Positions 9,588-17,719 of a stretch of DNA of 17,719 bases are shown here, piece by piece. Made by a program: the position numbers and the translations under genes. Origin of the DNA: Candidatus Sigynarchaeum calidifontis (GTDB lineage: Archaea; Asgardarchaeota; Lokiarchaeia; Sigyniarchaeales; Sigyniarchaeaceae); NCBI GenBank assembly GCA_030587475.2, contig JAUQYZ020000251.1:1-17719 (forward strand), given 5' to 3'. The first letter of the stretch is position 1, and each line of letters opens with the position of its first letter. Below the pieces are notes generated by a model that made no database searches, was not told the origin of the DNA, and was given only the letters and a program-made list of their open reading frames with translations.

Positions 9588-10079
9588 TTACACATTATCG
9601 ATATGCGAAAATCTCTCAAGCACCAAAAAAAAAAAAGGGATCGGGCATGTCGCGCATCAAAATTGAAGGGGAAACGAGCCATCCGACAGAAATCATCGCA
9701 CGGGACGTCGTGCACGCAGTGATCGGACGCCTTGCAGCGATCAAGGAAACCCTTCGATCGATGCCGACCTTGCCATGTTTCACGAAAAATACAAGCATTC
9801 AGATGAAGAATTCCTTTATTTGTTTAATAAAGGCGAACTCTTCGATGAAGATGATTTTTTCGCCTGAGAAGGCTCGTTAAAGATCGTGCGCGCCAACAAG
9901 CTGAAGCCACGGCTCAAGTTCTTGGTGAAGCCGTGACGATCTTGCCAGCCCGCCGAGGAAGTCGGTCGATTATCGTTTCGCTAAATTGCCACCCATTATC
10001 ATAAAACGGGTATCCAACTTTTTATATGTACATCCGGTTCGATATCATGAACATCCGAACAACATTCATGAGGTCTAGA

Positions 10080-11248: not shown

Positions 11249-11396
11249 CGGGTGATTAGTTACGCTCCACGAGGGATCTAAAATCACCGCACGCCTCGGC
11301 GATGCTTCGGGGCGGTGGCGACTTTCGCGTTCACTGCACGTCAGTTTTATGGCAGTGACGCAAGAACCCATCGTTTACCAGGAGGCTAATCACCCG
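11249..11396 (+). ncRNA. Unknown ~148-nt structured RNA (terminal stem plus two-hairpin junction)
   Basis: CGGGTGATTAG/CTAATCACCCG 11-bp closing stem, CTCC/GGAG, GGGATCT/AGAACCC, hairpins CACCGC/GCGGTG and TCACTGC/GCAGTGA. Confidence 0.6.
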
Positions 11397-11600
11397 ATCA
11401 AGTGCTGATTCTCCTCCTTGAGTCGCGTGTCGTGGGGAATGGGTTGCCGCTCCCTCGTGGCTACCACCCGTTTCGAGCCATTCCCGCGCCGCCGGTGCTC
11501 GTGTCGGGGAAATGCGCCGTGATCCGCATGAGATCGTGATCGAGAGGATCTGCAGGGCGTGTCGCACCATGCCGGGCTAGGTACCGGTAGGTAGAACCGG

Positions 11601-11674
11601 GCGGGCGTCATATAGTGGCAGTATGTGGCGTCGCCAGCGCTGACACGGGGGTTCGAGTCCCCCCGCTCGCACCA
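11601..11674 (+). tRNA. trnG: tRNA-Gly(GCC), C33, encoded CCA
   Basis: Acceptor GCGGGCG/CGCTCGC, loop TC-GCC-AG, T arm GGGGG-TTCGAGT-CCCCC, ACCA. Confidence 0.9.
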
Positions 11675-11689
11675 TCGCTTCCCACGCGC

Positions 11690-11763
11690 GCGTCGGTCGT
11701 CCAACGGCAGGGCCCGGGGCCTCCAACCCCGTGACGAGGGATCATCCCCCTCCCGTCGCACCA
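11690..11763 (+). tRNA. trnG: tRNA-Gly(TCC), atypical (C33, T-loop ATCATCC)
   Basis: Acceptor GCGTCGG/CCGTCGC with one mismatch, CGGGG-CCTCCAA-CCCCG, GAGGG/CCCTC T stem, ACCA. Confidence 0.75.
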
Positions 11764-11778
11764 TCTACCATGCACCGC

Positions 11779-11852
11779 GCTCCCGTGGTCTAACCGGCAA
11801 GGATGCCAGCTTCTCAGGCTGCGAGGTCCGGGTTCAACTCCCGGCAGGAGCA
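11779..11852 (+). tRNA. trnE: tRNA-Glu(CTC)
   Basis: GCTCCCG/CAGGAGC, CAGC-TTCTCAG-GCTG, CCGGG-TTCAACT-CCCGG. Confidence 0.85.
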
Positions 11853-11888
11853 CGACCACGCGACACTAAACGACCTAACGCGACACGA

Positions 11889-11964
11889 GCTTCCATGCTC
11901 TAGCGGCCAAGGAACTTGGACTTTCAATCCACGTGCGCGGGTTCAAATCCCGCTGGAAGCTCCA
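11889..11964 (+). tRNA. trnE: tRNA-Glu(TTC)
   Basis: GCTTCCA/TGGAAGC, TGGA-CTTTCAA-TCCA, GCGGG-TTCAAAT-CCCGC, TCCA. Confidence 0.9.
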
Positions 11965-11974
11965 CTCAAAGAAA

Positions 11975-12050
11975 GGCCCGTTCGGATAGCCCGGTAATCC
12001 ACCTGGCCGTGGCCCAGGCGTCGGACGTTCAAATCGTCCACGGGTCACCA
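11975..12050 (+). tRNA. trnH: tRNA with GTG anticodon (His), atypical (C33, A73, no encoded G-1)
   Basis: GGCCCGT/ACGGGTC, CCTGG-CCGTGGC-CCAGG, GGACG-TTCAAAT-CGTCC, ACCA. Confidence 0.78.
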
Positions 12051-12063
12051 ATATCACCACCAC

Positions 12064-12136
12064 ACCCCCGTAATTCAGCGGCCCAGAAGTCGGGGCCTTG
12101 AACCCCGGAACCGTGGTTCGAATCCACGCGGGGGTA
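12064..12136 (+). tRNA. trnQ: tRNA-Gln(TTG), C33
   Basis: ACCCCCG/CGGGGGT, CGGGG-CCTTGAA-CCCCG, CGTGG-TTCGAAT-CCACG. Confidence 0.88.
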
Positions 12137-12153
12137 TGACACGCCAGCAGAAC

Positions 12154-12229
12154 TGCCCCGTGATGTAACCGGCAAACAGGCGCGCCCCTGAAGCACGCAA
12201 TGGCGGTTCGAGCCCGCTCGGGGCAACCA
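12154..12229 (+). tRNA. trnQ: tRNA-Gln(CTG), C33
   Basis: TGCCCCG/CGGGGCA, CGCGC-CCCTGAA-GCACG, GGCGG-TTCGAGC-CCGCT, ACCA. Confidence 0.85.
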
Positions 12230-12292
12230 ACCCGGCCATGACGACAAACGAGCAAACCAACCAAGTAGCGAAAAAATGCATCAACAACCGGC

Positions 12293-12366
12293 GAGGTGGT
12301 ACGATAACGGCAGTCTCGCGGTCTCCAGAACTGCGGGCGTGGGTTCAACTCCTGCCCACCTCACCA
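12293..12366 (+). tRNA. trnW: tRNA-Trp(CCA), intronless
   Basis: GAGGTGG/CCACCTC, GCGGT-CTCCAGA-ACTGC, T loop TTCAACT, ACCA. Confidence 0.85.
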
Positions 12367-12738
12367 ACAAACCAAGCGTGAACGAAATGGCAGCACGGTT
12401 AGCGTTGAAATCAACAATCCCCACGCGGCCATCGGTCGCGGTGGTGTCCTATAGCACGAGGCAGCCCATGCAAGCCAGCAGCGCGCTGAAGGTGGTCGAC
12501 GTGATTTCAAGCATCGCCGGTGATGCACGGCTCGATTTTCCCTCGGCATATCTCGTCCCGCCATTCACGGCCGAGCCGGGGTCCCTCGCGGCCTATCGCC
12601 GCTGCTTGCCGGCACCAAAGCCATCGAGACGATCCCCGAACGGCGGCGCCGCCACGATCTTTTCTTTACGCCATGGTTCACGTGAGGTCAGTTATCTTCA
12701 AAAATATCGATTCTCTTGGCTATTCCGGCAATCTTTCT

Positions 12739-12757
12739 CGAAAAAGTTTATATATCG
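12739..12757 (+). promoter_or_regulatory. Second BRE-TATA promoter within the array
   Basis: CGAAAAAGTTTATATATCG, a copy of the 11206 motif. Confidence 0.65.
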
Positions 12758-12988
12758 GTGTCGATATCAATGATCTTGCAATTCAAATGAAAAAGAATTA
12801 CCACAAACCAAAATGGTGACCCGACCAAGAGACAACGAACGAGATCGCCTGCTAGCAAGAGACGATACCGGCACCACCGAGCACGGCCGGAGACGGCTAG
12901 CAGGGGATCGCTTGCCCGCAACGGGCACGATCCAGGCTTTCTACCCACCAGGACGATCAAGACCGTACCACGCGCCCAATGACACGAC

Positions 12989-13065
12989 GGGAGTGTCGTC
13001 CAACTTCGGCAAGACGCCAGGCCGTTAACCTGGACATGCAGGTTCGACTCCTGCCACTTCCGCCA
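12989..13065 (+). tRNA. trnN: tRNA-Asn(GTT), C33
   Basis: GGGAGTG/CACTTCC, CCAGG-CCGTTAA-CCTGG, GCAGG-TTCGACT-CCTGC, GCCA. Confidence 0.9.
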
Positions 13066-13083
13066 CCCGATCCCATTATCCAT

Positions 13084-13207
13084 GCGCCAGTAGCTTAGCA
13101 CATGATCTCCATCCCGTCCTTGCCAAGCGAAGTGCCACGGAGATTACATCGGATAAAGCATTTGTTTCACGAGCAAATAATCGTTGGTTCGATTCCAACC
13201 TGGCGCA
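13084..13207 (+). tRNA. trnV: tRNA-Val(CAC) with a ~50-nt structured D-loop insertion (about 13100-13148) carrying the repeated RNA motif
   Basis: GCGCCAG/CTGGCGC, D stem GCTT/AAGC, TTTGT-TTCACGA-GCAAA, GTTGG-TTCGATT-CCAAC; insert closed by ATCTCC/GGAGAT. Confidence 0.82.
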
Positions 13208-13222
13208 TCAATTTTTCTCCTT

Positions 13223-13296
13223 GGAAGCGTGGTGTAACGGCAGCACTTCGCACTGTCAGCGCGAGAATCGGGGTTAAATTCCCCGCGCTTCCGCCA
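13223..13296 (+). tRNA. trnD: tRNA-Asp(GTC), T-loop TTAAATT
   Basis: GGAAGCG/CGCTTCC, TCGCA-CTGTCAG-CGCGA, CGGGG/CCCCG, GCCA. Confidence 0.85.
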
Positions 13297-13594
13297 CCAT
13301 CGCTCGTTCGTGGGCTAAAATCGTTCTCCCCCCATTCCACGAAAAACATTAGTAATGGAGCGTCGATGGATATTCTTGGTTGATAACATGTGTGCAAATC
13401 GGTTTGACAAAAGCGCCGAGAATGAAGTCCGCAAGTAACAAATTTACACGGGAAATCTTCGCATGATGAAAGAAAAGCCGATAAATGGCACCGATCCTTC
13501 CCGATAGCCACGTGCCCAAGATATCTATCGGGGGCGACGTGAAGCGCCTGGCGAGAAAATTCGACGAGCAAAGGGGTTTCAAGGAGTCTTGAAT

Positions 13595-14155
13595 TCAATC
13601 GCACAACAAGCCGTTCCAGGTCTGGATGCATTCCTCCTTCGAGACATCGAATGCCTTCTCTACCTTGCTCCAGTCCGTTTGCGCCATGATGCCCTGCTTG
13701 TACCGCGAGTTGATGAACCGGGCGAGGTCGCGCGGTAATTGCTCGTTACTCGTGAAAATGTCGATGCAGAAAACGTGGTTCGATGCCTTGTCATAGACGA
13801 AGCCGGCTGTCTTCTCCGTGATGCTTATCAAGAGCTTGGCAGTCGGGGAAAAGAAGTAAAAATCGTTCATCATCTTCTCCTTGTGGATGAGGTAGCACGG
13901 GGAATCCCGGAGTTCCTTGATCGTGTCGATTGGTTTAACTCGCTGCAATTTCAAGGCCTCCTCCATGAAAGCCATGGTAAAAAGGACCACGTCGGCAATG
14001 GGCAAGGGGCGTGCAACAAGAACCGGGAACGGCACGACAACCCACTCGATCAACTTCGGCAGCAAGATGAGGCGTTCTGGCTGCCAGAAAAGCGACGCCA
14101 CCGGGTCATCGGGCAAGCCGAGGTCGTTCGCCTCGATTTCCAGCAGTTCGGCCAT
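13595..14155 (-). CDS. Hypothetical protein, antisense within the tRNA array
   Basis: Open frame with globular-protein composition (MAELLEIEANDLGLPDDP...ECIQTWNGLLCD). ATG 14155 preferred because the upstream ATG (14245) abuts tRNA-Phe. Confidence 0.7.
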   Translation of the reverse strand: MAELLEIEANDLGLPDDPVASLFWQPERLILLPKLIEWVVVPFPVLVARPLPIADVVLFTMAFMEEALKLQRVKPIDTIKELRDSPCYLIHKEKMMNDFYFFSPTAKLLISITEKTAGFVYDKASNHVFCIDIFTSNEQLPRDLARFINSRYKQGIMAQTDWSKVEKAFDVSKEECIQTWNGLLCD

Positions 14156-14246
14156 CGGTAACGAGACTTCATCCACCATGATCGTTGGATAGACCGAGGC
14201 CAAGGCATTTAATTGTATCATTGTGCGCTGGCAGACCATTATCATT

Positions 14247-14323
14247 GCAGTGATAGGCTAGCTGGGAAACCGCCCGGCTGAAAACCGGGACGTCGAGTGG
14301 TTCGAGTCCACTTCACTGCACCA
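14247..14323 (+). tRNA. trnF: tRNA-Phe(GAA)
   Basis: GCAGTGA/TCACTGC, CCCGG-CTGAAAA-CCGGG, AGTGG-TTCGAGT-CCACT, ACCA. Confidence 0.9.
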
Positions 14324-14348
14324 CCTTCCAATTCCACGTCGTACCTGC

Positions 14349-14428
14349 GAGCTCGTCGCCTAGCCAGGCAAGGGCAGCGGGCTTTTAACCCGTCTAGTTT
14401 GCGAGTTCAAATCTCGCCGAGCTCGCCA
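14349..14428 (+). tRNA. trnK: tRNA-Lys(TTT), 7-nt variable loop
   Basis: GAGCTCG/CGAGCTC, GCGGG-CTTTTAA-CCCGT, GCGAG-TTCAAAT-CTCGC, GCCA. Confidence 0.9.
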
Positions 14429-14477
14429 TTCTTTCTACAAATTCGAGGTGATTGACCGAGTAAGCCAACATCCACGA

Positions 14478-14610
14478 GGGCGGCCGCCGCCGTGCATCCG
14501 GGCCCGTGTTTCCACAACTGTCCTCTCCGAGAGGTGCCGTGGAAACTACATCGGCCACAGACTGTGAATCTGCATAGCCTCCTTGCCCGGCACAAAGGCG
14601 GCGGCCGCCC
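14478..14610 (+). ncRNA. Candidate Y-RNA-like ncRNA A (133 nt)
   Basis: Perfect 14-bp terminal stem GGGCGGCCGCCGCC/GGCGGCGGCCGCCC, inner GTG/CAC and CCGGG/CCCGG, conserved motif 14505-14554, anticodon-like arm CAGA-CTGTGAA-TCTG. Confidence 0.72.
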
Positions 14611-14691
14611 GTTATCCACCGCGATGATTCGAGGGGCACCACGACACGCGTGGCCCGATTCGGGCCACCACTTCTCTCCCCATTAGTCTTC

Positions 14692-14771
14692 GGGCTTGTC
14701 TCCTAGCCAGGCCAGGGAGGCGGACTCTTAATCCGCTCGTACCGCGAGTTCGATTCTCGCCAAGCCCACCA
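14692..14771 (+). tRNA. trnK: tRNA-Lys(CTT), 7-nt variable loop
   Basis: GGGCTTG/CAAGCCC, GCGGA-CTCTTAA-TCCGC, GCGAG-TTCGATT-CTCGC, ACCA. Confidence 0.9.
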
Positions 14772-15156
14772 AATATTCGTTGATACCCAAAATTCGCCGC
14801 CCGGAGCATTACCACCTGGAGTACGCGAGTGCAATGCTCGCCCGGGCGTGAAACGCTTGCCACCACGCGCCGCGGGGCGCTACCGGGGGGTTCTCACCGC
14901 CAAGTCCCCGTCCAGCGATCGCCTGCAGCGCCCGGTTCCAAGCAGGCTCGTTTTCCCCGGCGCGCCCGTCGGTGCGAGGCGCGCCGGAGCCCATCCCTTT
15001 CACGATCCATGCACGATTCTCGGTCCAAAAACGGCCAATTTCCCGCCGGAAGCACACGCCGCCTGTCGTAGCGGGTGAAAGCCCCGCGCAGGCGAACATG
15101 GATGCATCGGGCATCCAGGTTACCAACAACTGCGACCCACCCGGTCGCATTCCCCC

Positions 15157-15301
15157 GCATAGACGCAGCCGTGGACACGCGGAAGGGGGCCACGTGTTTC
15201 TGCATCCTGTCCTTCGCAAGGAGGTGCCGCGGAAACTACATCGTCACTCGAAAAGACGCTCCGGCCCCACACCGCGCCACAAGGGCTGTCTCGTGCAACC
15301 A
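15157..15301 (+). ncRNA. Candidate Y-RNA-like ncRNA B (~145 nt, ends in ACCA)
   Basis: Nested stems AGAC..AGCC/GGCTGTCT, GTGG/CCAC, GCGG/CCGC, GGGGCC/GGCCCC; conserved motif 15193-15243 with a compensatory change relative to ncRNA A and a GCAA tetraloop. Confidence 0.72.
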
Positions 15302-15357
15302 ATTTTTCGCACGTGATGGAAAACAACGACAGCACCAATCGCAACACCTGCGAAACG

Positions 15358-15379
15358 ACTGTCCTCGAACAAGAGGTGA
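15358..15379 (+). promoter_or_regulatory. Shine-Dalgarno (GAGGTGA) of the Ro60 gene inside a copy of the motif's apical hairpin
   Basis: ACTGT-CCTC-GAACAA-GAGG-TGA, about 10 nt before ATG 15389; compare AACTGT-CCTC-TCCGA-GAGG-TGCC in ncRNA A. Confidence 0.6.
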
Positions 15380-15388
15380 AAAAACAAT

Positions 15389-16948
15389 ATGGCAAGAAGC
15401 AAGTTCGGCAAGAAGGCTTCGATCGCGACCGACTATGGCGACGCTGACACCAGGAACTACGAGGCCTTCCCTGCCTGGTCGATGCCGCTCGACGAGCAAT
15501 TCCGCCAGCTCGCCTTCAACGGCATCATCGCGCACCAGTTCTACTGCAGCGAGGACGAGATCCTCCGGAGGGGCATGGGCATCATCGACAAGTTCGTCAA
15601 GGAAAACCCGGCGAAAGCGCTCGAGATCGCCGCGACCGCGCGCAACGAGGGCTTCATCCGTTCGGTCAACATCACCACGCTCGCCAAGGCAAGCACCAGC
15701 ACCGGGGCATTCAAGGAGTACTTCGACAAGATCGTCCTCACCCCGCGGGACATGGTGCAGTTCATCGACGTGATGCGCGCGAGCCGCGGCCTCGGCCGTG
15801 CCATCAAGGAGACCATGAACAAGTGGGTCGCGGCCAAGCTCGACGAGTTCTGGGCGATCAAGTATCGCAACCAGCTCCAGGACAGCATCCGGCTCGGTCA
15901 CGCCAAGTTCGACGACGAGGCCAAGGCCATGCTCGCCGACTATGTCATGGAGAACGGCGAGCAGGCGAAGCGCGACGCCATCGTGGCACGCTTCCCGGCC
16001 ATCAACGCGGTTGAAATGCTCAAGCGCATCAACCCGCTCGTCGACGAGGGTCGCGCCATCGATCTCATCACCGCGGCCCGCCTCGATTGGAACGTGGTCA
16101 AGGGCATCTTCCACCCGACCCCGGACATCTGGAAGGCCCTCGCGGAGCAGATGTCGGCCATTGCCCTCGTCCAGAACATCGCGTCGATCGAGAGGAACGC
16201 GGGCGCCGACTTCGCGCTCGATATCGTCAAGCGCAAGGTCACCGCGGAGTTTCTCAGGCGCGGCAAGGTCTTCCCGTTCACCCTCGCGCAGGCCTACATG
16301 CACGTCAACGACCGAGCCCTCAAGTCCGCCATCGGCAAGGTGCTCGACTCGCTGGCCCTCGCGCACGACTTCAGCAAGCTCGGCCGCGTCGCCGTGTGCC
16401 CGGACGTCAGCGGCTCGATGACCAGCCCGAGCTTCATCAACATCGTTATGCAACGTGCAAGCGGCAAAGGTGGCAAAGGTGACATCCCGGAGGGCAGCAT
16501 GCACGTGCCCATCCAGGTCGCGGCCATGATCGCGGGCATCCTCGCCGGCGCCACCCGCCACTCGCGGCTCCTCGCGTGGGACACCGAGGTCATGGACGAG
16601 CGCGCCCTCTTCGGCAAGGACAAGGAGTGGCGCACCCCGACCCGCATCATGGAGCGACTCATGCGCATCACCGGCGGCGGCACCTTCATGGAGGCCCCGG
16701 TCAAGTACCTCGTCGAGCACCGCGTCGACGTCGACACGTTCGTCCTCGTCACCGACTCGGAGGAGTGGGGCGAGGGTTGGCTCGCCTACTGGAAGAAATA
16801 CAAGCAGTCGCACAAGGCCGCGCGGGCGTTCCTCGTCAGGGTCGACCTCTACCCGACCCGCCCGTTCGGTGGCGACGACTGCGAGCGGCTTGGCATCACG
16901 CAGATCTACGGCTTCAGCGAGATGGCCTTCAAGGTCATGCTCCAGTAA
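15389..16948 (+). CDS. rsr: Ro60/Rsr-like TROVE-domain RNA-binding protein with C-terminal vWA domain
   Basis: N-terminal 'NYEAFPAW', QFY, 'ARNEG.IRS', 'GLGRAIK..WV', 'IKYRN..D.IRLGH', 'ALVQNI', 'VFPF' TROVE motifs; MIDAS DVSGSM, GGT, VTDSE; 519 aa. Confidence 0.9.
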   Translation: MARSKFGKKASIATDYGDADTRNYEAFPAWSMPLDEQFRQLAFNGIIAHQFYCSEDEILRRGMGIIDKFVKENPAKALEIAATARNEGFIRSVNITTLAKASTSTGAFKEYFDKIVLTPRDMVQFIDVMRASRGLGRAIKETMNKWVAAKLDEFWAIKYRNQLQDSIRLGHAKFDDEAKAMLADYVMENGEQAKRDAIVARFPAINAVEMLKRINPLVDEGRAIDLITAARLDWNVVKGIFHPTPDIWKALAEQMSAIALVQNIASIERNAGADFALDIVKRKVTAEFLRRGKVFPFTLAQAYMHVNDRALKSAIGKVLDSLALAHDFSKLGRVAVCPDVSGSMTSPSFINIVMQRASGKGGKGDIPEGSMHVPIQVAAMIAGILAGATRHSRLLAWDTEVMDERALFGKDKEWRTPTRIMERLMRITGGGTFMEAPVKYLVEHRVDVDTFVLVTDSEEWGEGWLAYWKKYKQSHKAARAFLVRVDLYPTRPFGGDDCERLGITQIYGFSEMAFKVMLQ

Positions 16949-16977
16949 GCCGGCAAGCCGCCACGTCGAAAACCAGT

Positions 16978-16988
16978 TTCCTTTTTTT
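16978..16988 (+). terminator. Possible oligo-T terminator after the Ro60 gene
   Basis: TTTCCTTTTTTT about 30 nt past the stop codon. Confidence 0.35.
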
Positions 16989-17007
16989 CCCAACAACGAC
17001 TATCGAA

Positions 17008-17082
17008 GCAAGGATGGCCCAGTCGCCCGGCAGCGTCCTGATAAGGCGCCTCACGCAGGTTCAATCCCTGCTCCTTGCACCA
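17008..17082 (+). tRNA. trnI: tRNA-Ile(GAT), D-loop lacks GG
   Basis: GCAAGGA/TCCTTGC, GCGTC-CTGATAA-GGCGC, GCAGG-TTCAATC-CCTGC, ACCA. Confidence 0.82.
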
Positions 17083-17104
17083 ATCCCGCGTTTTATCGAT
17101 CCAC

Positions 17105-17177
17105 GGGTTCAGAGCTCGAGCGGCAGAGCAACGGTCCAGTAAACCGTTTGGTGTGGGTTCGAGCCCCACTGGGCCCC
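17105..17177 (+). tRNA. trnT: tRNA-Thr(AGT), atypical (A34, C33, G8)
   Basis: GGGTTCA/TGGGCCC, D stem GCTC/GAGC, ACGGT-CCAGTAA-ACCGT, GTGGG-TTCGAGC-CCCAC. Confidence 0.78.
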
Positions 17178-17217
17178 CTTGCATGCTCATCAAGAAAGCG
17201 GAACAAGTAGCAGTAAC

Positions 17218-17295
17218 GGGCTCGTAGTTCTAACCGGATAGAACGCTTGGCTCGCATCCGAGAGGCTTGGGGTTCGAGTCCCCACGAGTCCGCCA
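17218..17295 (+). tRNA. trnA: tRNA-Ala(CGC)
   Basis: GGGCTCG/CGAGTCC with G3:U70, CTTGG-CTCGCAT-CCGAG, TGGGG-TTCGAGT-CCCCA, GCCA. Confidence 0.88.
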
Positions 17296-17299
17296 ACAC

Positions 17300-17373
17300 G
17301 TGCGGGTAGTCTTAACCTGGCAAAACCACCGGTTTGCAACCGGATGACTCGGGGTTCAAATTTCAACCCAATA
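17300..17373 (+). pseudogene. Degenerate tRNA-Ala(TGC)
   Basis: CCGG-TTTGCAA-CCGG arm and GGTTCAAAT are intact, but the T stem and acceptor stem are largely unpaired. Confidence 0.6.
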
Positions 17374-17466
17374 TATAGGCTGGATGGATGTCCCCGCCCG
17401 TACACTTCTCGAGGAATCCATACGGGAGACTCGCCAGGCGGGTCCACATTGCAGCATTCTTTCAGC

Positions 17467-17545
17467 GGGGACGTGGTCTAGCGGCACATATGATCCCGGC
17501 TTCGGAAGCCGGTGCACGGCGGTTCGAATCCGCCCGTTCCCACCA
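17467..17545 (+). tRNA. trnP: tRNA-Pro(CGG)
   Basis: GGGGACG/CGTTCCC, CCGGC-TTCGGAA-GCCGG, GGCGG-TTCGAAT-CCGCC, ACCA. Confidence 0.9.
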
Positions 17546-17552
17546 AAACCAT

Positions 17553-17648
17553 GGAACCGTAGCTTAACCGGGAAAGTGGTTTCATCCACACCGACAGCCC
17601 CCGACCGAAGCTCGGGCGTTCGGCGATCGAGGCGCCGCGGTTCCACCA
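17553..17648 (+). tRNA. tRNA-like gene (GAA anticodon, C33) with a ~21-nt D-region insertion and T-loop ATCGAGG
   Basis: GGAACCG/CGGTTCC+ACCA, CCCGA-CCGAAGC-TCGGG, CGGCG-ATCGAGG-CGCCG; extra hairpin GTGG-TTTCAT-CCAC. Confidence 0.7.
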
Positions 17649-17653
17649 TTTCC

Positions 17654-17719
17654 GGGGCCGTATTCTAGCGGTCGAAGATCCGGGCTTTGGGAGCCCGATG
17701 TCGTTGGTTCGAATCCAAC
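17654..17719 (+). tRNA. trnP: tRNA-Pro(TGG), truncated by the window end
   Basis: GGGGCCG start, CGGGC-TTTGGGA-GCCCG, GTTGG-TTCGAAT-CCAAC. Confidence 0.85.

Follow-up and report, generated by a model that had tools for sequence, protein, structure and literature searches.

What does an archaeal transfer RNA (tRNA) gene encode when a long and structured insert interrupts its D-loop: a tRNA with an unusual intron, or an RNA in which the insert stays? This question is raised by the tRNA-Val(CAC) gene located at positions 13084-13207 (+ strand, 124 nt) of contig JAUQYZ020000251.1 of Candidatus Sigynarchaeum calidifontis, an Asgard archaeon represented by a metagenome-assembled genome (MAG) that is 89% complete with 5% contamination. 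The whole contig (C212; 17,719 nt, 17.7 kb) was analysed and is referred to below as the window. The gene lies upstream of a gene coding for a Ro60 homolog, and the hairpin formed by its insert is found again in two free-standing RNAs, here named RNA B and RNA C, encoded between the two; for brevity, the gene and its product are called the chimera and the hairpin is called the handle. The reading that we favour, to which we assign a probability of about 0.5, is that the chimera is a stable, tRNA-bodied Y RNA that would be released by tRNA-end processing and whose hairpin would dock Ro60, and that it is not an intron-containing tRNA.

Structure of the tRNA-Val(CAC) gene and of its insert

Both the minimum free energy and the centroid folds of 13084-13207 yielded a cloverleaf with a long hairpin within the D-loop (-35.4 kcal/mol, z -2.4). 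The acceptor stem includes 7 bp (13084-13090/13200-13206) and is followed by A73 at 13207; U8 and A9 precede a D stem of 4 bp (13093-13096/13156-13159), and A26 precedes an anticodon stem of 5 bp, which closes a canonical anticodon loop of 7 nt (UUCACGA, 13166-13172, + strand) with U33, the anticodon CAC at 13168-13170, and G37. A variable loop of 5 nt leads to the T arm (13183-13199), consisting of a 5-bp stem and the loop UUCGAUU. The D-loop is composed of AGC, the 51-nt insert (13100-13150, + strand), and GGAUA, with the insert placed between C16 and G18. All the nucleotides responsible for tertiary contacts are in place (U8, A14, G15:C48, G18, G19, A21, U33, G53, U54, U55, C56, A58, and C61); hence, the D arm, T arm, acceptor stem, and tertiary contacts by which a tRNA-like domain of the type of the bacterial Y RNA YrlA (Y RNA-like A) is recognised are all found in this molecule. 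The G+C content of the chimera is below that of the neighbouring tRNAs.

Once the insert was removed in silico, ARAGORN recognised a standard tRNA-Val(CAC) cloverleaf of 76 nt. From the native sequence, ARAGORN and Rfam retrieved only a makeshift tRNA (13132/13134-13207; 30.3 bits, with a cut-off of 29), in which one strand of the acceptor stem is borrowed from the insert. A preliminary description of this DNA, made from the sequence alone, had proposed a complete cloverleaf with about 50 extra nt in the D-loop, and the folds and the parse confirm it.

The insert, which corresponds to a covariance model hit at 13104-13152, is made up of a 5' linker (13100-13104), an outer helix (13105-13110/13139-13144), an asymmetric internal loop (13111-13117/13133-13138), an inner hairpin (13118-13132), and the conserved tail UACAUC (13145-13150). 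Its inner helix contains one C x A mismatch, and the insert has GAAGUGC in the place of GAGGUGC.

Distribution and fold of the hairpin motif

The motif is present three times in the window: in the insert of the chimera, in RNA B (14478-14611, + strand; motif at 14508-14554), and in RNA C (15165-15289, + strand, about 100 nt upstream of the Ro60 gene; motif at 15197-15244). The covariance model of the motif (R1) scored 50.9 bits (E 5e-10) on the insert and 65.4 and 64.8 bits on the two free-standing copies, so that the homology of the insert with the two free-standing RNAs, already suggested in the preliminary description, is borne out. Probing the genome of the organism itself (G000) with R1 retrieved only these three copies, all belonging to the tRNA array described below, and no match was found in 150 other genomes of the order. 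The motif was also absent from IMG/VR (pattern search) and from viral Ro60 loci (motif-model search).

Close relatives of the array were gathered through exact-protein look-ups and one metagenome scan (their loci are indicated by L numbers); when the Ro60 alignment was used to scan species-representative genomes, the loci retrieved were mainly those of bacterial Ro60, and none was closely related to the array. According to the R1 model, every close Ro60 locus with sufficient upstream DNA harbors two to four copies of the motif. All the 13 copies, folded singly, share one structure: an asymmetric internal loop separates an outer helix (6-10 bp) from an inner helix (5-6 bp, of the CCUCU/AGAGG type), which is capped by a small loop, and the single-stranded tail UACAUCG follows. 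The outer helices of these 13 copies and of three further copies from locus L101 have at least seven different sequences and are always paired. Single-sequence folds were relied on because, in the MAFFT alignment (A5), the outer helix has its 5' strand out of register, and the resulting value of 66% understates its pairing.

Two other drawings of the motif were rejected: a K-turn was ruled out for the internal loop, which contains no tandem G.A pairs, and prolonging the outer helix through the conserved tail was ruled out, since the added pairing is not kept between copies. A putative pseudoknot of 3 bp would pair UGU of the loop with ACA of the tail, both of which are invariant. The string GAGGUG, on the 3' strand of the inner hairpin, is Shine-Dalgarno-like. 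Moreover, a partial copy of the hairpin covers the ribosome-binding site of the Ro60 gene (15358-15378), and a conserved GAGGUGAU string lies upstream of RNA B (14446-14458); both are kept in L097, L010, and L011.

Conservation of the chimera

The chimera is identical in two further assemblies (L007 and L008), that is, in three assemblies. An ortholog occupies the same position of the array in L097 (L097:795-923), whose Ro60 protein is 83% identical to that of the window; the two chimeras share 78% identity, against 83-99% for the neighbouring tRNAs. Over the 21 base pairs of the tRNA body, the comparison of the two orthologs revealed four double compensatory changes (2:71, 49:65, 51:63, and 52:62) and one change from U.G to C-G, with no pair lost. 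The outer helix, the tail, and the ends of the D-loop do not differ at all, and CAC and U33 are retained in L097 despite changes at positions 37 and 38. The gene is followed by UCA in the window, and CCA is encoded in the L097 ortholog.

Furthermore, in L101, from an organism whose Ro60 is 54% identical, a tRNA-Thr(UGU) cloverleaf (L101:1257-1393) carries the motif in its D-loop, just 5' of GGAUA. Taken together, the substitution patterns indicate that the composite of tRNA and hairpin is under selection in at least two lineages; the same D-loop graft occurs on tRNA-Thr(UGU) in a third. A BLAST search of 40 related genomes with the chimera yielded a single match of 41 nt, at the level of chance.

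The body of the chimera shares only about 54% identity with the ordinary Val tRNAs of the array, which implies that it is not a recent duplicate of them. Since the array comprises a normal tRNA-Val(CAC) (L007:13621-13698, in its 31-gene version), the chimera is predicted to be redundant for decoding.

As for the tRNA-Thr(UGU) gene of L101, its handle sits on a short extra stalk, and ARAGORN misses the native gene.

Relationship with YrlA and linkage to Ro60

The Ro60 gene of the window (15389-16948, + strand) codes for a protein of 519 aa with a TROVE ring and a vWA domain (Pfam PF05731 and PF25045), the latter with a DxSxS metal site whose residues D339, S341, and S343 are invariant. Its matches in the PDB include Deinococcus radiodurans Rsr (2nvo, E 6.5e-10) and the human and Xenopus Ro60 proteins, and the closest named relative is from a Sigynarchaeota MAG (71% identity). 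The chimera ends at 13207 and the Ro60 gene begins at 15389, both on the + strand; this falls within the spacing of less than about 4 kb on the same strand by which genes of the YrlA type are recognised. In L097, the ortholog of the chimera is likewise near the Ro60 gene and on the same strand.

YrlA (RF02553) was described by Chen et al. (2014, PMC4201824), and its structure was reported by Wang et al. (2018, 10.1101/312249). It resembles the chimera in being encoded near a Ro60 gene, on the same strand, and in joining two modules, a bulged stem (Ro60-binding in YrlA and putatively so here) and a tRNA-like domain that comprises an acceptor stem and the D and T arms. On both strands, the handle of the chimera is collinear with YrlA: on one side over UGCC, the helix strand GGRAAC, and UAC(AUC), the segment of the kink and the variable loop, and on the other over UUUCCA-AAC. 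The two differ in that YrlA is circularly permuted, with its ends in the handle and a closed acceptor stem, and lacks an anticodon arm and an anticodon, whereas the chimera is unpermuted, with an open acceptor stem of 7 bp and A73, keeps the anticodon arm and CAC, and bears a loop-closed handle in the D-loop. It also has AGAGG in the place of GNCGAA, has an archaeal host, and does not match the YrlA family: a search of Rfam with positions 11300-17719 of the window, up to E = 5, retrieved neither YrlA nor Y_RNA, the gathering threshold of YrlA being 69 bits. Rfam gave no Y RNA or YrlA match for the window.

A bona fide YrlA from Rhizobium (L037:11893-12025; 70.5 bits against the Rfam cut-off of 69) was used for the comparison of the two sequences (alignment A6). 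Its 5' end, GGCGAAUGCC-UUGGGAAC-UACAUC, is collinear with the 3' half of the motif, AGAGGUGCC-GUGGAAAC-UACAUC, and its 3' end, UUUCCAA-AAC..., with the 5' half, GUUUCCAC-AAC.... Because of this collinearity, the motif resembles the Ro60-binding stem of YrlA, with its two helices, closed into a hairpin by a loop that joins what is the open end in YrlA; the UA of the tail corresponds to the conserved kink dinucleotide of YrlA (10.1101/312249).

Related handles were found near distant Ro60 genes as well. Circularly permuted, YrlA-like RNAs (L104:9760-9909 and L102:9820-9942; 45 and 35 bits, under the Rfam cut-off of 69) precede two Asgard Ro60 genes whose products share 36-39% identity with that of the window, one of them being named Freyarchaeota; both RNAs begin with GAGGUGC, nine nucleotides of a helix, and UUACUUCG. 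In seven loci, the 600 nt upstream of Ro60 contain the 9-mer GUUACUUCG, with nine hits in total and an estimated chance number of about 0.3. Overall, handles adjoin Ro60 genes in at least four distant lineages, including Asgard archaea and Chloroflexi. The collinearity with the YrlA stem and the presence of related handles just upstream of distant Ro60 genes make the predicted link to Ro60 firmer than gene neighbourhood alone. Furthermore, the conservation of the handle sequence from Rhizobium to Asgard archaea suggests that Ro60 and its RNA travel as one unit.

The preliminary description had contrasted the chimera with YrlA, where the handle occupies the position of the anticodon arm, and this contrast holds: here the D-loop is used and the anticodon is kept. 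It had also considered that the chimera might be an evolutionary intermediate between tRNA and Y RNA, an idea that found no support as stated; since the hairpin looks like a loop-closed stem of the YrlA type moved between tRNA positions, a portable module fits these sequences better than a transitional form.

Each of the YrlA-like RNAs of L104 and L102 has a second handle-bearing RNA just upstream. In Rhizobium panacihumi, four tandem matches of the YrlA type lie downstream of rsr (L037:11539-12154), one out of four being above the Rfam cut-off.

Splicing signals around the copies of the motif

In both RNA B and RNA C, the motif is enclosed by a bulge-helix-bulge (BHB) of the strict hBHBh' type. 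In RNA B (fold z -5.6), this consists of an outer helix of 14 bp, the central helix GUGC/GCAC, and bulges of 3 nt at 14496-14498 and 14594-14596, with a predicted excised piece of 14498-14595; it is shared by three lineages (the window, L097, and L010). RNA C has the central helix GUGG/CCAC and the bulges ACA and AAG, with a predicted excised piece of 15177-15282, and its BHB is shared by five lineages (the window, L097, L092, L010, and L011). A strict hBHBh' surrounds every free-standing copy, those of L011 B and of L101 B and C being weaker and possibly due to chance. The tRNA splicing endonuclease probably excises RNAs B and C at these strict and recurring BHBs, and, judging from other archaeal BHB products, the excised RNAs are probably circularised; they would then represent BHB-processed, Y-like RNAs.

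The tRNA-embedded copies behave differently. The strict scan, for which RNAs B and C and the tRNA genes of the same genome with BHB introns served as positive controls, enclosed none of the five (0/5), and no central helix of 4 bp can be drawn at the D-loop borders in the window, L097, or L101. When the scan was relaxed (bulges of 2-4 nt, one mismatch, and one flanking helix), the candidates were no commoner than in shuffled inserts, and none was common to the orthologs; the lack of a canonical BHB noted in the preliminary description thus stands under both scans. Moreover, the sequence of the 5' border of the insert differs between the orthologs. Since the free-standing copies lie inside BHBs and the tRNA-embedded ones do not, the insert is probably not an archaeal intron. 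The splicing enzymes themselves are encoded in the genome, with three matches for PF01974 (EndA) and one for RtcB.

A BHB-like drawing within the internal loop of the motif itself is possible in only some of the C copies and was taken as a coincidence.

Other tRNAs carrying the handle

The handle has been grafted onto other tRNA bodies too. A tRNA-like RNA of L010 (L010:857-948), with an acceptor stem of 7 bp and ACCA, has a D arm and bears the handle where a tRNA has its anticodon arm. In the bacterium Herpetosiphon aurantiacus DSM 785, two unpermuted tRNA-like genes (L025:9403-9534 and 9688-9795) are located just upstream of rsr, with anticodon-loop inserts of 66 and 40 nt that are made up of a CCUCN/NGAGG hairpin, a helix, and UUACUUCG. 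The grafts of L010 and Herpetosiphon cannot be spliced into a tRNA, and this makes retention of the handle the better reading. In addition, a tRNA of L097 (L097:1385-1510) with the anticodon ACU has a fifth arm, formed by the handle, between positions 26 and 27. The window retains a remnant of this second chimera, an acceptor-stem minihelix with ACCA (14652-14670, + strand), the core having been deleted in this lineage.

In the L010 RNA, the variable loop is represented by ACAUC and the T stem is weakened; its connectivity is that of an unpermuted YrlA.

Proposed maturation of the chimera and alternative explanations

According to the reading that we favour, the chimera would be co-transcribed with the adjacent tRNA-Asn and tRNA-Asp, from which it is separated by spacers of 18 and 15 nt, starting from a TATA-like box at about 12745-12756. 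RNase P and RNase Z would release it like any other tRNA, and the CCA enzyme would complete its 3' end. The hairpin would be retained, projecting from the length-variable part of the D-loop and leaving the contacts of G18/G19 with the T-loop undisturbed, and would dock the Ro60 encoded 2.2 kb downstream. The tRNA body might represent a nuclease-resistant and correctly processed carrier and might also act as a module bringing Ro60 to a tRNA-handling partner, as has been proposed for the tRNA-like domain of the bacterial YrlA. RNAs B and C would mature otherwise, through excision at the BHB motifs and probable circularisation.

Several points weigh against this reading. The expression, the processing, and the Ro60 docking of the chimera are predictions from sequence, and its conservation is drawn from just two orthologs and one paralogous design. 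The flawless tRNA obtained without the insert, with its canonical anticodon loop of 7 nt, is also what the removal of an intron would be expected to give. D-arm insertions are common in the tRNA genes of Asgard archaea, and only about one-third of them have a canonical BHB, some being perhaps not introns according to the authors (10.64898/2026.10.13.758758); for this reason, a missing BHB is weak evidence and not a proof of retention. The string with which YrlA contacts Rsr, GNCGAA (PMC4201824), is replaced by AGAGG, which pairs with CCUCU here, so that the proposed Ro60 binding rests on the flanking homology and on gene linkage. Furthermore, the handles of both Val chimeras deviate at one position of the otherwise invariant GAGGUGC, and the insert of the window combines its C x A mismatch with the lowest model score of the three copies. 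Lastly, the decay of the second chimera in the lineage of the window (14652-14670) implies that such grafts can be lost.

Some of these points lead to an alternative that we consider possible but rather unlikely, in which the insert is an intron-like element cut out by way of a relaxed EndA substrate or by an unknown nuclease, freeing a spare tRNA-Val(CAC) and a handle RNA, perhaps circular, in the manner of the box C/D RNA that comes out of the archaeal tRNA-Trp intron. The perfect tRNA that ARAGORN finds after removal of the insert, the presence of EndA and RtcB genes, the frequency of Asgard D-arm insertions often devoid of a canonical BHB (10.64898/2026.10.13.758758), and the BHB scan of RNAs B and C, which points clearly to a handle working as an excised RNA, are all consistent with it; however, no central helix of 4 bp can be drawn at the borders of any of the three D-loop grafts, the 5' border is not conserved, and textbook BHBs serve RNAs B and C in the same genomes, so that an available route would be left unused here. 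The unspliceable grafts of L010 and Herpetosiphon argue against it too. If the hairpin is instead retained, it might be a tolerated or regulatory expansion of the D-loop in a working translational tRNA-Val with no role for Ro60. Such a tRNA would account for A73, CAC, U33, and a purine at position 37 in both orthologs, for the intact tertiary nucleotides, and for the CCA encoded in L097, and the region of the D-loop 5' of G18 is naturally variable in length. This explanation appears improbable nonetheless, since the insert is a conserved module shared with the Ro60-adjacent RNAs and homologous to the YrlA handle, the array already provides a normal tRNA-Val(CAC), and we know of no decoding tRNA with a D-loop hairpin of 51 nt.

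The partner of the hairpin might also be different: it could bind a protein other than Ro60, or pair with the 3' end of the 16S ribosomal RNA through GAGGUG, Ro60 being linked to it by neighbourhood only. The loss of GNCGAA and the occurrence of the Shine-Dalgarno-like GAGGUG(AU) also at the start site of Ro60 and upstream of RNA B would fit this idea, to which we give little credit because the handle is collinear with both strands of YrlA, including the conserved UA kink region (10.1101/312249), and stands beside Ro60 in at least four distant lineages, and because the 9-mer GUUACUUCG is enriched upstream of Ro60. A decaying tRNA pseudogene hit by a chance repeat insertion would explain why the window copy lacks CCA, has a mismatch in the handle and a lower G+C content than its neighbours, and why the chimera diverges faster than the adjacent tRNAs (78% versus 83-99% identity). 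This explanation was rejected on account of the compensatory changes, as all the stem changes of the tRNA body preserve pairing, four of them by double substitution, and the design is kept down to a Ro60 identity of 54% (L101); we hold it to be very improbable.

A bolder version of the tRNA-bodied Y RNA, which the sequence makes conceivable and which we regard as doubtful, is that the chimera is processed, CCA-tailed, and charged with valine, placing the Ro60 ring on a decoding-competent tRNA. Were this true, Ro60 might be delivered to EF1A or to ribosomes at GUG codons, or, alternatively, the chimera might be a Ro60-guarded decoy or repair substrate for an anticodon nuclease; either way, translation and RNA surveillance would be physically and directly linked in a close relative of eukaryotes. 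One may also imagine, purely as an idea, that tRNA-handle chimeras with open ends and permuted YrlA interconvert through circular RNAs generated by BHB excision and ligation.

Comparison with known systems

Much is known of Y RNAs and Ro60 in animals and in a few bacteria, and our literature search retrieved no archaeal or Asgard Y RNA and no Ro60 handle on an intact tRNA or in a D-loop. The joining of a structured RNA to a tRNA body has precedents. In Euryarchaeota, the intron of tRNA-Trp holds a box C/D RNA and is a canonical BHB intron, excised and circularised; the chimera resembles it in that a small functional RNA module is carried in a tRNA gene and is unlike it in having no BHB. In the engineered 'tRNA scaffold' of Ponchon and Dardel, a structured RNA reportedly replaces the anticodon stem-loop, and tRNA processing and the tRNA fold are said to protect and release it; the chimera likewise places a structured RNA in a tRNA body, but it is natural and has its graft in the D-loop.

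The Asgard D-arm insertions (10.64898/2026.10.13.758758; PMC4090602) share with the chimera an extra stretch in the D region that is missed by standard tRNA finders and whose removal restores a normal tRNA. The insert of the chimera differs from them in its length of 51 nt, compared with a median of about 22 nt, in the absence of a strict or relaxed BHB, and in having a sequence and a fold in common with Ro60-adjacent RNAs; moreover, it lies in a spare array of tRNA genes that is otherwise intron-free and CCA-encoding. The chimera thus offers a concrete case for a question of the 2026 preprint, namely, whether the D-arm insertions of Asgard archaea include some that are not introns.

A TROVE gene was found in 20 out of 29 archaeal tRNA clusters, which were limited to Halobacteria and Methanobacteria (Morgado and Vicente 2019, PMC6333295). 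These clusters are like the one analysed here in consisting of a tRNA array with an embedded TROVE/Ro60 gene, and differ from it in that the parts of that study considered here describe no partner RNAs or tRNA chimeras. For Asgard viruses, the presence of Ro60 and RNA ligase genes has been noted in one preprint.

If the interpretation of the chimera as a tRNA-bodied Y RNA is correct, the Ro60 partners of Asgard archaea would be built around a single, portable docking hairpin that is set into several chassis, namely, two RNAs cut out at splice motifs and tRNA bodies bearing it in the D-loop, at the 26/27 hinge, or at the position of the anticodon arm. Such chimeras would represent a natural experiment on the purpose of the tRNA-like half of Y RNAs, and the one of the window would be a candidate, open to testing, for a tRNA that is tethered to Ro60 and possibly chargeable.

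Organization of the tRNA array

The chimera is part of a tRNA array that lies on one strand from position 11601 to the end of the contig and comprises at least 19 tRNA genes, most of them encoding CCA. The longer contigs L007 and L008, from the same strain, harbor 31 tRNA genes, with ordinary chromosomal genes flanking the array on both sides, and no BLAST match to the region was found among phage records. The immediate neighbours of the chimera, identified by ARAGORN and Rfam, are tRNA-Asn(GUU) upstream (12989-13065, + strand; 18 nt before it) and tRNA-Asp(GUC) downstream (13223-13296, + strand; 15 nt past it), and the gene order Asn-chimera-Asp is common to the window and L097.

Upstream of tRNA-Asn, positions 12742-12960 comprise the conserved TATA-like box and then a conserved non-coding stretch that in part forms hairpins; both are also present in L097, L011, and L101. 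A second non-coding stretch, GC-rich and with no Rfam match, lies between tRNA-Lys(CUU) and RNA C (14830-14990) and is kept in L097, L010, and L011. Near the end of the window, a tRNA-like gene of 96 nt (17553-17648), recognised by ARAGORN as tRNA-Trp, has an expanded D region without a handle.

As regards the protein-coding genes, several lineages share a GNAT acetyltransferase gene within the array (L007:12821-13312), and pairs of PIN and antitoxin genes of the VapBC type flank it. In one lineage, a gene for an RNA ligase of the Rnl2 type (L011:11668-12600) lies directly 3' of the Ro60 gene.
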